Source of the DNA: a virus
Taxonomy: Duplodnaviria > Caudoviricetes
Strand: one strand, 5' to 3'
Virus record (IMG/VR): IMGVR_UViG_3300010965_000001
Span: 128,001 to 192,000 of that record
Length of the DNA: 64,000 bases
Part shown: positions 42,208 to 63,999 of the stretch, in pieces
Layout of the letters: every line of letters begins with the position of its first letter
How positions within the stretch are numbered: the stretch's first letter is position 1
Notes under the pieces: generated by a model
What the model was told of the DNA's origin: nothing
Seen by the model: only the letters and a program-made list of their open reading frames with translations
Databases searched by the model: none
Position numbers and translations under genes: made by a program

Positions 42208-42374
42208 ATAAATATAACGAATTGTTTGTTTTATGCGTCAAAAACATTGTCTAACCAGTCATAATTAACTTTTTTTGGCGAATTAATATAATAAGCCATT
42301 ACAAGTACTATGACGATTGGACATATGATTGTGGCGATAACTATTGCCGATATTTTTTTCATAAGTTGCCTCGG

Positions 42375-42755
42375 TGGACTAGGAGGGGTTCGAACCCTCG
42401 TGTTGAACAAACACCAATTAAAAGACTACATGCTTAGTTTGATTCTGCGGAACGTCATAAACTTGTAAGAATCTAACAAGATACAAGAAAATCTATTCTG
42501 CTTTTGAATGGTACAGATAAACCATTTGTATCTACAACGTCTTATTTTTTGTTCTGACTAAGGTAAATAAGAACCTTAGGCTGCGTACGCGTATTCGGCG
42601 TTCACTGCTTCACCCATGATGAACGCCATAGCATCATCAAATGTGAATGAAGATTTCTCTTCTGCGTTTATTTGTTTTGCACCTTTTAAAGAGTTTATTG
42701 CTCCCTCTGCATGCCTTCTAATCTATACTTATCCAGTCGATTCCATATCTAGCCC
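42375..42755 (-). ncRNA. ssrA: tmRNA
   Basis: 5' GGGCTAG pairs with 3' CTAGTCC-A with G3-U70; T-arm GGGTTCGAACCC; D-like GAATCGAC; tag frame 42665-42576 AEEKSSFTFDDAMAFIMGEAVNAEYAYAA*. Confidence 0.92.
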
Positions 42756-59341: not shown

Positions 59342-59431
59342 TGGGGTGACGAGTGGAATTTGAATCCACGATAGGGTATTATCCCAACGAGGGCCACAAC
59401 CTCGCGCAATTGACCGCTCTGCCATCGTCAC
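59342..59431 (-). tRNA. tRNA-His(GTG) with long variable arm and encoded CCA
   Basis: CGAGG-TTGTGGC-CCTCG, C73. Confidence 0.8.
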
Positions 59432-59836: not shown

Positions 59837-60633
59837 TATTGTTTCTTTCGTTTACCAATATCTTTAACAACCGCTTTCGTATGGAACTTCCTAATGTCAA
59901 CATCTTGATGACCCTTGAGAAATTCTACAATCCCTTTTAATACACCTACCAACGATTGAACGTCTGCGATTGCCGAATGCCAATTATCAACATTGACTTC
60001 AAGTGCGGTTGATAATTGACCAAGATTAGAATTAATTCTACCGTTTCTTGTCAATGCTCCCAACATTTTTGTTATACCTTCATCACCAGACTTTTCTAAT
60101 GACTGTAATGCCGGGGCGAAATACAACTGTGCAATTTTCAAAGAATCAAGAACTCTAAATCGGTTCATTCGTATTCCATAGTGTTGCCCACGTTGGTTGA
60201 TATATTTCATATCAAATGATGCGTTGTGAGCGATTAATAATGGATTCTCAAATGTTCCTAACCAACCATTAAACTCTTGTAAAACTTGTTGTTCACCTTT
60301 GAATTTTGCGTGACGTTCACCATACTTCGTCATCTTCATAATGTCACGCATCTTCATCGAACCTTTTTTCGGAGGTTCTGTATCTTGAACCTTCATCTTT
60401 GCCTGTGCGTCTTTTCTAAGACTTACTTTTTCATGGAAGATACCAACTTGTTCAAAGGTAGTTCCATCAAATGCGATTGCGGCAACTTCTGTTACTTGTG
60501 TATCAAGATTTTGCGGTTTCAATCCAAGTGTTTCTGTGTCAAAGAATATTAACGTCTGTCCTTCGAACGCCAAAAACTTTTCTAATACTTCCTTGATTGA
60601 TAGTCCGTATATCTTTTTTTCCTGTAATTTCAT
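59836..60633 (-). CDS. DEDDh 3'-5' exonuclease (Pol III epsilon-like)
   Basis: FFDTETLG, AHNASFD, H.AIAD. Confidence 0.85.
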   Translation of the reverse strand: MKLQEKKIYGLSIKEVLEKFLAFEGQTLIFFDTETLGLKPQNLDTQVTEVAAIAFDGTTFEQVGIFHEKVSLRKDAQAKMKVQDTEPPKKGSMKMRDIMKMTKYGERHAKFKGEQQVLQEFNGWLGTFENPLLIAHNASFDMKYINQRGQHYGIRMNRFRVLDSLKIAQLYFAPALQSLEKSGDEGITKMLGALTRNGRINSNLGQLSTALEVNVDNWHSAIADVQSLVGVLKGIVEFLKGHQDVDIRKFHTKAVVKDIGKRKKQ

Positions 60634-60864
60634 TTGATTCTCCCATTAGTGTATATATAAATATGAGTGAATCAAAGTAAAACTATTATAAACGGAGCCG
60701 ATGGGCGGGAATTTTAGTGTCCCGAACATACCGATGTAACATATCCCATCAAAAGGGATATTGCATGCGGATTCTTGTGCCTCATCGGCAAATTGAGGTT
60801 CTTTGTAAATTTTCGATTTCTGGTTCATGCACCTAAGTGAAATGTACGATTTACAAGAAACTTG

Positions 60865-60940
60865 TGGAAGATAAGGGATTTGAACCCTTCTGAAATCCTC
60901 ATTGCAAGTGAGGTGTCCACCCCGAGCAGACCCATCCCCC
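60865..60940 (-). tRNA. tRNA-Ala(TGC)
   Basis: Cloverleaf, G3-U70. Confidence 0.9.
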
Positions 60941-61201
60941 AAGTTTATTTCTATTTTAAAGTAATTGGATTTTTGCGACATCAGAGTTATCGTCGCCCCA
61001 CTTTTTACAACACCAACTACTTTTTTGCTTTGGTGTTACGCCAGTGGGGCTTGATAAAATTCAGGTGTATTACCGTTCGCAAACATGACTCCACTATCAG
61101 CAATGGATGCCGACTGCCATGAGCGTTTTGATTCGGTATGTAAATTCGTCTTTTTCACGATAATCACCTTGAATGAATTTGTTGTTTGTGTATATAATAT
61201 A

Positions 61202-61229
61202 AGTATAAAGAAAAAAAATAAAACGTCAA
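61202..61229 (-). promoter_or_regulatory. sigma70-type promoter
   Basis: TTGACG-N16-TATACT. Confidence 0.55.
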
Positions 61230-61391
61230 TTATTTTACAACTTCCTTGACTTTTTTAATGTCACGAACTGTCACCTTCCAGTCCCGCTTGGGAACGTAGA
61301 TGTGCGTCTTGTCGAGTGTGACGCGGTGTTCTGCGGTATAATCCGAAACCTTAGTGATTTCGTTTGTTTCAATGGATTTAATGCACTTCAT
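61230..61391 (-). CDS. Small hypothetical protein
   Basis: Start MKCIKS after GGAG. Confidence 0.5.
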   Translation of the reverse strand: MKCIKSIETNEITKVSDYTAEHRVTLDKTHIYVPKRDWKVTVRDIKKVKEVVK

Positions 61392-61519
61392 AATTGAATC
61401 TCCGTGATTAATGGTTGACAACTTTTTGAGATGAATAGAATTAACAACTTGTAAACTACTTGTAAACAATATAGGTATTGCTCCTATCAAGTGCTCATTG
61501 CAATTGTTTATAAAAAATT

Positions 61520-62395
61520 AAAAGGTTGAGAGATTACACCTTCTACGCATTTCCTTTTCGTAGATTATAGTGACCTTGCGGGTCAGTTTCCTACTTTCTC
61601 CACCAGCGTTCAGCTCGAGTAGAAATGCATGACTTCCGTTGTTTTTAACGGTGACGGTACCGATATGTATGAGCCTACTCAATCCTTGTCAATTCTCCCT
61701 GCCTTGCGAGCAGTTAATCCTTGCGGGGAATAGATGCAGACTTGAATTAAATTCCTACGCCTTGCGGGTTTCAGAACTCTCCATTCCTTTCGGTGGAGAT
61801 TTAAGCCATTTTTGTTCTCATACATGACCACGACTTTGCTGTTTTTAATTGTCTTGGGATTTGAACCCAATCTTTAGTTCCATATACTAACGCTCAACCA
61901 TTTGAGCTAAGACTGTGCAACTCACAAAAGACGTGCGTGGTCAGTGGTTCCATTCTCTTTTGGAAAACGATATGCCACACGCCCTGTATCTTTCGTCTGC
62001 TCGACTACTCAACGGATTTTCAAGATTTTGGTGCTTATGGAACAACCACACCAACACCAACCTCTTTCAATCTAAATAGAAGCCCTTATTTTGCATCACT
62101 CGGACAACTACTCTCCCCTTCATTTCTCGTTCATCGTCTCGTTTGGTATCTGCTTACTCGGCACCACCCGCTAGTCCAGTCCTACGGAGTTACCCTCGGT
62201 CTGTTCGCAGCGAAACTTCTGACATACTTCCAGCAGGATTAGTGGCTGAAAGACTCCGAAACTCGGTTTGCATAAGTGACCAATTGAGATTGGCGACGCC
62301 CTGTGAGCGGGTTAAGTCTTTTACCATATTACTACGGCTTATCTTCTCCCTTGCGGGAATGGATGTCATACCACCCATTTTAAACTTTATAATTC
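61520..62395 (-). ncRNA. Large ornate ncRNA, GOLLD-like
   Basis: About 870 nt with no credible ORF, five C-GCAA-G hairpins, embedded tRNA-like domain, own sigma70 promoter, U-rich 3' end; family call not confirmed by a covariance model. Confidence 0.65.
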
Positions 62396-62409
62396 AAAGA
62401 ACAATTTTG

Positions 62410-62556
62410 TTTCAACTTGATGTATTAAATATACAAAACTTTTATTACAATGTCAAGCCTTATTTCAAAATTCTTTTATTTCTTTTTCGTTACGACTTGT
62501 TTCAACTTGATGTATTAAATATACAAACTTTTTATTACAATGTCAACGCCTTATTT
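62410..62556 (-). repeat. Direct duplication (about 55 bp, two copies) each carrying a TTGACA-N17-TATATT promoter
   Basis: gtttcaacttgatgtattaaatatacaaa...ttacaatgtcaa at about 62410 and 62500; -35 boxes at 62451-56 and 62541-46. Confidence 0.85.
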
Positions 62557-62834
62557 GCTTTTTTATATAATGCGTTAAAAAGAATCATGTCCCACCCATT
62601 TATACTCTGCGCCGAGACCCCATTCACCTGACCAGCAATATGAATAGAATTCGTTTCATTCAACATCCATTGCTCACTTGCTAAATTAAAGAATGCAAAC
62701 TCTCGCATACTCTCATAAATAGGATTTGAACATTTTAGCAGAAATTCCGTTGTAACAGTTATATTGAACGTTGTGGTTTTGTTATTTTTTAGTAAATAAA
62801 ACAAGTCCACAGTTTTCTCATATGCTGATTTCAT
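62535..62834 (-). CDS. Hypothetical protein between early promoters
   Basis: ORF track. Confidence 0.4.
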   Translation of the reverse strand: MKSAYEKTVDLFYLLKNNKTTTFNITVTTEFLLKCSNPIYESMREFAFFNLASEQWMLNETNSIHIAGQVNGVSAQSINGWDMILFNALYKKANKALTL

Positions 62835-62836
62835 AT

Positions 62837-62994
62837 AATATAACCTTTATTTATTGGAAAGTCAACGCCTAAATAAAAATAAATTCAAGGCGACCCGCTT
62901 ACGGATTGGCTTACTCTATCGTCAGATTTTTCGGAGTCTGACCGAGCCTTGAACTTTATGTATTAAATATAGTAACTTTTTAGGCAAATGTCAA
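62837..62994 (-). promoter_or_regulatory. Two further sigma70-type promoters
   Basis: TTGACT-N17-TATATT (62865-62837) and TTGACA-N17-TATATT (62994-62966). Confidence 0.7.
62881..62956 (-). ncRNA. Small three-way-junction RNA
   Basis: 11-bp terminal stem AAGTTCAAGGC/GCCTTGAATTT starting about 10 nt after a sigma70 -10 box. Confidence 0.55.
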
Positions 62995-63003
62995 CGCCTA
63001 AAA

Positions 63004-63999
63004 TTAACTTGTTGCTTCACCAAAATGAAGACAGAATGGGTGACCGTAATCCTGTGTTTCACAAGGAGGAACTCTACCAAAAATAAGACACCAAATATGT
63101 TCTGGGTCAGTTGGCAGTGGGTCATATGATACAGTATTTCCATCTGCAACATACATACCACTTCCAGTAGGTTCCCATCCATAACTCAAATTCTCACCCC
63201 ACCATATACGTGTTTTTGGATTTGGGTTGACCATAGTGATAGTGTGTTTAAGTCTTCCATATGCACCAGGGCTTGTAGACCGCACATAAGTAACTACATC
63301 TGGAATACGTTGTTTAGTTATATTAAAATTATTATATGCAAAACATTGTCCATGATTTTGGCTTGTAATCATCGTGTTTACGAGAACATCCTCATCACCA
63401 AATAATGGGAGTGTAACTTTAACAGTCCATGTTTTTGAAGTAGTACACCAATCATCCGAAGATAAGAGTTGATACGATGCACCGTTATTCGCAGCAATTG
63501 CCAGCGTGTACGGTTCATTGTCAATTCCATATCCAGAATTAGTAATGTCAAATGAATATATGTTTTCAATCATACCAGTATATTGACCAGTCTGAGTTGT
63601 AACACTTGACTGTAAAGTACGGTTAAAAACAGGAATCACATGTGTTGGTTCTGGTGGAGGTGGTGGAGTAAACAATGGATATTGAACGCCAACAAGCGTA
63701 CATCCAACTACATACCAATTACCATAAATCACCACATATATCTGGCACGAACCTGGGGATGCATTTGCCGTCAACGCTCTCCACGAATGTGTAGATGGAT
63801 TACATCGTTGTGAGTAATAATTGTAAGTTCCACCCACTCCACCTGTTCCCTCTATGGCTTCGGGTCCATACGGCCAGAACACATCCGAATTGGCAATCGG
63901 AATATTTGGGAATGTGACATCGTACACTTCCGCTGTGAAATCAATTCTATATGATGTGTTTGTGTTTGTTACTGTTTGTACATACCGAACCCAATACTC
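63004..63999 (-). CDS. Ig/FN3-like beta-sandwich virion protein (5' end outside window)
   Basis: Frame open to the window edge; Thr/Trp/Tyr-rich with PPPP linker. Confidence 0.55.
   Translation of the reverse strand, partial: EYWVRYVQTVTNTNTSYRIDFTAEVYDVTFPNIPIANSDVFWPYGPEAIEGTGGVGGTYNYYSQRCNPSTHSWRALTANASPGSCQIYVVIYGNWYVVGCTLVGVQYPLFTPPPPPEPTHVIPVFNRTLQSSVTTQTGQYTGMIENIYSFDITNSGYGIDNEPYTLAIAANNGASYQLLSSDDWCTTSKTWTVKVTLPLFGDEDVLVNTMITSQNHGQCFAYNNFNITKQRIPDVVTYVRSTSPGAYGRLKHTITMVNPNPKTRIWWGENLSYGWEPTGSGMYVADGNTVSYDPLPTDPEHIWCLIFGRVPPCETQDYGHPFCLHFGEATS

Follow-up and report, generated by a model that had tools for sequence, protein, structure and literature searches.

The window that we analyzed is a 64,000-nt stretch of DNA, bases 128001-192000 of a 210,562-bp IMG/VR virus record, which is rated 100% complete and comes from an uncultivated phage. 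Proteins encoded in it match the PHROG families of baseplate wedge, primase, and polymerase-type exonuclease, and these matches confirm that the virus is a tailed phage. The minus strand of the window contains a GOLLD RNA gene, which reads, from 5′ to 3′, as a ~430-nt 5′ domain, a hairpin, a linker holding a degenerate tRNA, and a conserved 3′ core (Table 1). The RNA would be ~1000 nt long if counted from the upstream promoter P1.

Table 1 Features of the GOLLD locus, in window coordinates.
Feature	Position	Strand	Basis or remark
GOLLD RNA gene (predicted)	62421-61510	minus	~910 nt; span from promoter to tail
Upstream promoter P1 (predicted), TTGACA-17-TATATT	62518-62546	minus	in repeat copy 62497-62546
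Proximal promoter P2 (predicted), TTGACA-17-TATATT	62428-62456	minus	in repeat copy 62407-62456; predicted start near 62421
5′ domain, ~430 nt	61988-62421	minus	AU-rich leader, then conserved helices
GUAA-capped hairpin of the 5′ domain	62339-62322	minus	covariation
Helices of the 5′ domain	62318-62316/62297-62295, 62251-62246/62233-62228, 62113-62102/62085-62074	minus	covariation
First hairpin of the Rfam GOLLD model (positions 1-62), ahead of the variable linker	61926-61987	minus	RF02032 alignment
GOLLD variable linker, almost wholly tRNA-like insert	61835-61925	minus	RF02032 alignment and literature
Embedded tRNA-like element, 70 nt	61847-61916	minus	Rfam tRNA, 41.1 bits; ARAGORN 'His-atg'
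GOLLD 3′ core (model positions about 133-416)	61523-61834	minus	RF02032 alignment
U-rich tail (UUUUAAUUUUUU...), immediately past the last GOLLD hairpin	61505-61522	minus	direct reading

The covariance model of GOLLD in Rfam 15 (RF02032) matches 61523-61987 on the minus strand with 180.5 bits (E 4e-49, Infernal), and the match spans model positions 1-416 of 416 without truncation. We note that this model represents the conserved 3′ half of GOLLD only; its curated gathering score is 150 bits, which the window exceeds. None of the 14 control genomes has an RF02032 match. A permissive-filter Rfam search of 61300-62700 returned only GOLLD and tRNA at E<=1. As nothing besides GOLLD and tRNA reaches this cutoff, the locus was rejected as a ROOL RNA. 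A sequence-only reading of this stretch had named the search with the GOLLD and ROOL models as its check, having called the family 'from gestalt only' at 61520-62395; the call agrees with the Rfam model, and its bounds lie within about 25 nt of ours. The reading had also expected a weak or partial match to indicate a new ornate RNA class. This part did not hold, as the match is weaker than those of mainstream GOLLDs but complete, which argues for a divergent member of the family.

The features on which the call had been based are all present. The motif CTTGCG (plus strand; CGCAAG in the RNA) is found at exactly 61575, 61703, 61720, 61761, and 62350, all as reported, and 5 of its 18 matches in the 64-kb window fall within 1.4% of the window length. 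These motifs had been read as five C-GCAA-G tetraloop hairpins; the motifs stand, but several are 5-nt CGCAA loops in the family model instead of strict tetraloops. The GAAA motifs correspond to CGAAAG at 61995 and 61792 and GGAAAC at 61591. The proposed purine bias is real but mild (57.1% in the RNA strand vs 53.5% in the whole minus strand). The U-rich end, the internal tRNA-like domain, the duplicated promoters, and the scarcity of ORFs are likewise borne out, as described below. A simple count of GNRA hairpins is uninformative (3 observed vs 2.1 expected), since most CGCAAG motifs are in short stems or 5-nt loops. The single-sequence minimum free energy fold of the 921-nt RNA is no better than those of shuffled sequences (z -1.09), so the structure is supported by the covariance model and by covariation rather than by its folding energy. 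In the RF02032 alignment, several helices of the GOLLD model hold non-canonical pairs in the window sequence. A blastn search of 61400-62600 against 50,697 phage records gave zero matches.

To our pattern derived from the 3′ core, 61 GOLLD loci in IMG/VR correspond. The 14 mainstream loci that were scored reach 282-308 bits, and the window is about 100-130 bits under mainstream GOLLDs. It groups instead with loci L044, L036, and L043 in nhmmer comparisons. A more specific pattern for this side branch found L063-L068 in metagenome contigs and only L036, L044, and L053 in IMG/VR; it had no match in 185,579 species-representative prokaryote genomes, so that these searches yielded neither a prophage copy nor a clue to the host. 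When 51 distinct 3′ cores were placed in a tree, an exclusive clade with a support of 0.996 united the seven side-branch members caught by the extraction pattern. Side-branch members score 86-180 bits, and five of the ten scored loci (L044, L063, L053, L064, and L065) are full length yet below the gathering score. These five are four distinct RNAs, as L044 and L063 look like the same element. L066 is also below the gathering score, and it ends at a contig end. Most members have a tRNA in the linker, and the branch has its own structured 5′ domain. By these sequence comparisons, the window locus belongs to a divergent, well-supported side branch of GOLLD.

Four of the five CGCAAG motifs are located in the 3′ core of the window, as are the invariant blocks of the family, namely GUGGA-AA-GGAA, AUAAUC-AAAAG, and GUAAUCUC. 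An additional GCAA-capped (GNRA-type) hairpin, common to the side branch, separates the GGAA block from the AUAAUC block at 61591-61573. Among 8 side-branch sequences, 44 of the 60 RNAalifold pairs of the 3′ core are maintained despite changes in both partners. Covarying helices in the 3′ domain are one of the features by which a GOLLD RNA is recognized. Others are also found here. GOLLDs are large RNAs, roughly 700-900 nt, with a less conserved but structured 5′ domain of ~400 nt, and the window RNA spans ~910 nt with covariation in its 5′ domain, into which RNA contigs bridge. They have a variable linker that sometimes bears a tRNA, and the tRNA-like element here lies inside the insertion region of the model. 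They are borne by phages or prophages, often beside tRNA islands, and this locus combines a virus record, phage proteins, and a tRNA island.

The 5′ domain lies outside the Rfam model, and its structure was derived by comparison of relatives. With a 931-nt query (window 61500-62430), the closest relative, L067, aligned over positions 19-899, a span that starts in the promoter region and reaches the last hairpin, and the alignments of L068 and L063/L044 begin at query position ~255. RNAalifold of the 5′ domains of 4 sequences gave 47 pairs, and both partners vary in 27 of these. For example, the stem of the GNRA-capped hairpin is CCGUA/UAUGG in the window and CAUCUG/CAGGUG, CAUGAG/CUCAUG, and CACUAG/CUGGUG in relatives. 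Pairing in the cells of this alignment is 89.7%, compared with 33-43% when partner columns were slid and at most 78% in shuffles; this control is lenient, as the alignment had itself served to derive the structure. A close variant from RNA contigs, independent of the structure derivation, shows compensatory double changes at 62316:62297 (C-G to G-C) and 62108:62079 (G-C to A-U), together with one G-U to G-C change and 3-4 substitutions that disrupt predicted pairs of the 5′ domain. These observations indicate that the 5′ half genuinely belongs to the RNA as a structured domain, and that this type of domain is peculiar to the side branch.

A GGUGUU-type repeat (GGUUGGUGUUGGUGUGGUUGUU) is present at 62036-62062 on the minus strand, and contigs of all three RNA runs have a 6-nt deletion at 62048. 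The repeat is a length-variable spot in the RNA.

We also considered that the 5′ half might be the mRNA of a small protein and that GOLLD would comprise the 3′ half only, a reading to which we give almost no credence. The region does contain an ATG-initiated sense-strand ORF of 62 codons (62190-62378), which is the sole sense ORF of note, but there is no Shine-Dalgarno sequence ahead of its ATG. In the close variant, 11 nucleotide changes in this ORF lead to 8 amino-acid changes, and the ORF is not conserved, as the longest ORFs in the 5′ domains of relatives differ in frame, place, and length. What the region displays instead is compensatory base-pair changes. The ORF is therefore not gene-like, and the description of the locus as ORF-poor is accurate.

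The relation of this 5′ domain to the canonical P1-P13 of mainstream GOLLDs was assessed with profiles. A profile of 38 mainstream 5′ domains, which scores 213-418 bits on its own members, matched neither the window nor a side-branch locus at E<=10, and searching the mainstream with the side-branch 5′ profile was equally without a match. The domain may be P1-P13 in a diverged form or a substitute for it. A pattern based on its conserved stretch had 0 matches in IMG/VR. One reading of this result is that the RNA belongs to a new ornate class that merely resembles GOLLD, with a common 3′ module, an unrelated 5′ domain, and another function. The mutual failure of the two profiles at E<=10 is consistent with such a class, as are the separate clade, the extra hairpin in the 3′ core, and scores that straddle the threshold, with half of the scored loci (four distinct RNAs) under 150 bits. 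However, the 3′ match runs from end to end at a highly significant E value with the invariant blocks in place, a divergent 5′ region is already part of the published definition of GOLLD, and the context of phage, tRNA island, and linker tRNA is that of the GOLLD family. We therefore regard a new class as improbable and treat the window RNA as a divergent GOLLD.

The linker of this GOLLD is located in the long insertion region of the model, which separates the first hairpin from the long-range helix, and the tRNA-like element occupies almost the entire linker. The element folds into a cloverleaf with the anticodon loop AUAUGGA (anticodon AUG) and the canonical T loop UUCAAAU. It has a 4-bp T stem and two acceptor mismatches, C-A (2-71) and A-A (3-70), and CCA is not encoded. 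A canonical tRNA would have a 7-bp acceptor stem, a 5-bp T stem, a bacterial anticodon, and a processable 3′ end, which the embedded element lacks; its score is nevertheless above the Rfam tRNA threshold. To our knowledge, bacteria use A34 only in tRNA-Arg(ACG), and we know of no bacterial tRNA-His with the anticodon AUG. We rejected the possibility that the element is a recent copy of one of the 33 other tRNA genes of the phage, as the best global alignment of the 70-nt element has 50 identical positions. These features suggest that the copy in the window is probably a pseudo-tRNA.

Linkers of the relatives differ widely. The linker tRNA of L053 is a well-formed Ile-GAU that scores 60.7 bits and encodes CCA. 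In L063 (4978-5053) and L044 (6512-6587), the linker tRNA reads UGA ('Ser') at the anticodon, but its variable loop is short (class I), and CCA is encoded; judged from this architecture, it should not be a substrate of seryl-tRNA synthetase. A tRNA-Arg(ACG) is also found 5 nt past the last GOLLD hairpin in L063/L044. Cys-GCA is also among the linker tRNAs of the relatives, and L068 has a weak tRNA-like element of 43 bits. Thus tRNAs occupy the same place in L036, L044/L063, L053, and L068 with an identity that differs in every relative, and the linkers of L067 and L043 have no tRNA. As the relatives range from a well-formed tRNA to none, the insert is variable and dispensable within the branch.

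It has been proposed in the literature that tRNAs covalently linked to GOLLD are released. The embedded element might be a working tRNA, which RNase P and RNase Z would cut out of a GOLLD transcript whose main purpose is to be its precursor or store. The cloverleaf with its canonical T loop, the tRNA score, and the well-formed, CCA-encoding linker tRNAs in L053 and L063/L044 are compatible with this scenario, which we nevertheless find very improbable for the window. The mismatched acceptor stem, the short T stem, the missing CCA, and the anticodon AUG all argue against decoding; the phage already has a separate tRNA-His(GUG); and a tRNA is not a constant part of the linker in the branch. RNA contigs are unbroken across the element, although this argument is a weak one as it comes from contigs only, and the GOLLD pseudo-tRNA of M. 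aubagnense has no separate transcript (PMC6582537). We therefore keep to the reading of a pseudo-tRNA within the GOLLD RNA.

Upstream of the gene, a 50-nt repeat is present in two copies (96% identical, 90 nt apart), each of which carries one of the TTGACA-17-TATATT promoters. Both promoters belong to a class of 8 TTGAC-N18-TATATT sites in the window (39598-62994), all on the minus strand, where 0.14 would be expected by chance. Three of the 8 sites precede tRNA groups (45307, 54278, and 57298). The class looks like a set of phage-wide near-consensus promoters that drive the tRNA island, and transcription of the GOLLD gene would be carried out by the host sigma-70 polymerase, with predicted starts near 62421 and 62511. 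Several sites of the class also have TTGACATTGAT...TTTGTATATT in common. In L067, two promoter-like sites are found ~80 nt apart before GOLLD, at 900-1020 (TGcTATATT near 930 and TTTACA-17-TAATAT at 985-1013), an arrangement that echoes the tandem promoters of the window. The -35 box of P1 coincides with the last codons (…GCG TTG ACA TTG TAA) of a 99-codon ORF at 62535-62834 on the minus strand. A promoter at 62865-62837 stops 2 nt before the ATG of this ORF; because of this short distance, either the ORF is expressed from a leaderless mRNA or it is not real.

At the other end, the RNA reads CCUUUUAAUUUUUU and is U-rich. The U-rich tail may act as a weak intrinsic terminator, and the terminator scan gave no terminator call there. 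The arrangement of a hairpin followed by a U-rich tail is also seen in the relatives L036, L053, and L068. Directly downstream of the tail is a 53-aa ORF (61233-61394, minus strand) that has a GGAG ribosome-binding site and no PHROG match.

Further downstream, 33 tRNA genes and a tmRNA gene follow on the same strand, from 60940 down to 42373. The tRNA island spans 19 kb with 34 tRNA genes, the embedded element included, and the tmRNA; since the other genes are downstream of it on the same strand, the GOLLD gene heads the island. The tmRNA gene (42373-42755, minus strand) encodes a long tag, AEEKSSFTFDDAMAFIMGEAVNAEYAYAA. The tRNA-His(GUG) gene (59342-59431, minus strand) is 90 nt long and has a long extra arm and an encoded CCA. 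tRNA-His is normally a class I tRNA, and a long extra arm is unusual. Among the side-branch GOLLD carriers, L043 and L044/L063 have a tmRNA gene within a few kb. We also looked for relatives in IMG/VR through the neighboring 265-aa exonuclease gene and found none.

To assess expression, we compared the locus with sequencing runs. Two DNA runs of one sample, which may be the sample that the virus record came from, contain 88-93% of the sampled words of 61400-62600, and freshwater-sediment metatranscriptome runs of another study contain 26-31% of them; runs X5-X16 have small word shares, which have no bearing on habitat. Within the compared region of 60400-63400, DNA run X1 covers the flanking genes as well, with depth in 28 of 30 bins, and the RNA-library contigs (three runs of one study) lie within 61634-62364 only. 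We note that stretches without RNA contigs (60400-61633 and 62365-63400) are no proof of silence. Three contigs of run X4 are identical to the window (61654-61740, 61711-61763, and 61734-61928), and the other RNA contigs are variants with 90-99% identity. A contig span of 61636-62032 joins the 3′ core, the tRNA, the hairpin, and the 5′ domain, and another of 61951-62364 covers most of the 5′ domain. In record 5 of run X3, 61669-61914 is replaced by 249 other letters, and we take this record to be from a more divergent relative. The pattern of RNA contigs is consistent with an abundant, stable RNA whose ends lie approximately where we place them. As assembled contigs carry no strand, ends, or level, and as carry-over of DNA is possible in such libraries, we consider expression of the GOLLD RNA likely. 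The sequence-only reading had named the lack of both expression and covariance-model or covariation support as what would speak against it; the data give a model match, covariation in both halves, and contigs from RNA libraries.

Taken together, we consider it highly probable that 62421-61510 on the minus strand encodes a ~910-nt GOLLD RNA of a 210-kb tailed phage, belonging to a divergent side branch with its own type of 5′ domain. Very few natural RNAs are known to build closed cages of RNA only, and GOLLD is one of them. Following the published GOLLD structures, the host RNA polymerase would transcribe the RNA strongly, 12 to 14 copies of it would assemble into a homo-oligomeric RNA-only cage with the 5′ domain as the cap and the 3′ domain as the ring, and the linker with the tRNA-like insert would point to the cage interior. 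Cage formation by the window RNA and a role for the enclosed element are thus suggested by analogy. Since the 5′ domains have no detectable sequence similarity in either direction, cage formation and stoichiometry are not transferable from the mainstream with confidence. GOLLD has been published as rising during phage lysis. With low confidence, we suggest that its role is tied to the tRNA or translation biology of the phage in lytic growth, and that the enclosed tRNA may be dispensable cargo, not a working decoder.

A stronger version of this view is that the side branch is a distinct GOLLD subclass, in which a conserved ring-forming 3′ core is combined with a different cap (5′) domain and the linker tRNAs are often implausible decoders. 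We think this unlikely as a whole and offer it tentatively. The His-AUG element of the window with its broken acceptor stem and the class-I 'Ser-UGA' of L063/L044 are examples of such implausible decoders, and all copies of the side branch that we found are on free phage contigs rich in tRNA and tmRNA genes, which stem from sediment, freshwater, and soil-type samples. A different cap domain on a conserved 3′ core may result in a cage of different geometry. If this subclass exists, the caged tRNA would be structural cargo or a decoy (e.g., for host factors that bind or cleave tRNAs) rather than a tRNA stored for translation.

All salient features of the window have precedents, including the location of GOLLD near tRNA islands, the linker tRNAs or pseudo-tRNAs, and the variable 5′ region. 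These results overturn nothing known and are mainly material for GOLLD specialists. What they add is the delimitation of a full transcript, evidence for its expression, and the recognition of a side branch that has a distinctive 5′ domain and in part falls below the Rfam threshold. Standard annotation would overlook the five sub-threshold loci among the ten scored relatives. The example is well delimited and defined by promoters at ~910 nt, and it comes from a large lytic-type phage rather than a prophage or a mycobacterial tRNA array. As the side branch has its own cap domain and a linker content that ranges from a perfect tRNA via a decayed one to none, it is a natural comparison set for asking whether GOLLD needs the enclosed tRNA to function and whether the number of copies per cage depends on the cap domain.

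Comparisons with known systems place the window RNA close to described GOLLDs. The env-38 GOLLD, 833 nt in size without a tRNA, forms a D7 14-mer RNA-only cage with the variable linker inside (cryo-EM, PDB 9MEE, Kretsch et al. 2025, PMC12286853), and GOLLD linkers sometimes hold tRNAs (PMC12286853). The published GOLLD structure also includes an L20-J13/15 kissing loop. Compared with mainstream GOLLD (RF02032; Weinberg et al. 2009; env-38), the window RNA has the same full-length 3′-domain match, a total of ~900 nt, the same order of 5′ domain, hairpin, variable linker, and 3′ core, and the conserved CGCAA loops, and it is likewise borne by a phage and adjoins a tRNA island. It differs in its lower score, in a 5′ domain dissimilar in sequence to the mainstream one, in the extra GCAA-capped hairpin, and in a linker taken up by the tRNA-like element. 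ROOL RNA (Rfam) is similarly a large ornate phage RNA that is found near tRNA islands and forms cages, but the window is not a member, as it has no ROOL match.

The linker insert has its closest counterparts in mycobacterial GOLLDs. A tRNA-Phe is located in J13/15 of a Mycolicibacterium GOLLD (PMC12990946), and a pseudo-tRNA is found within the GOLLD gene of M. aubagnense, in a 32-tRNA cluster (Behra et al. 2019, PMC6582537). Mycobacterial GOLLDs in tRNA arrays (Morgado et al. 2020, via PMC12990946) share with the window a location among more than 30 clustered tRNA genes, and a tRNA or pseudo-tRNA in the single-stranded linker J13/15 (PMC12990946, PMC6582537). They reside in bacterial chromosomes or plasmid-like arrays of Actinobacteria, whereas the window belongs to a free 210-kb environmental phage genome with a tmRNA in the island. 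With respect to the 5′ domain, GOLLDs assemble into 10-, 12-, or 14-mers according to this domain (PMC12990946). The Streptococcus agalactiae GOLLD (700 nt, dodecamer, PDB 9L0R, PMC12990946) has a reduced or altered 5′ domain and still assembles, with another copy number. Compared with this RNA by its description, the 5′ domain of the window is full-sized (~430 nt) and not reduced.
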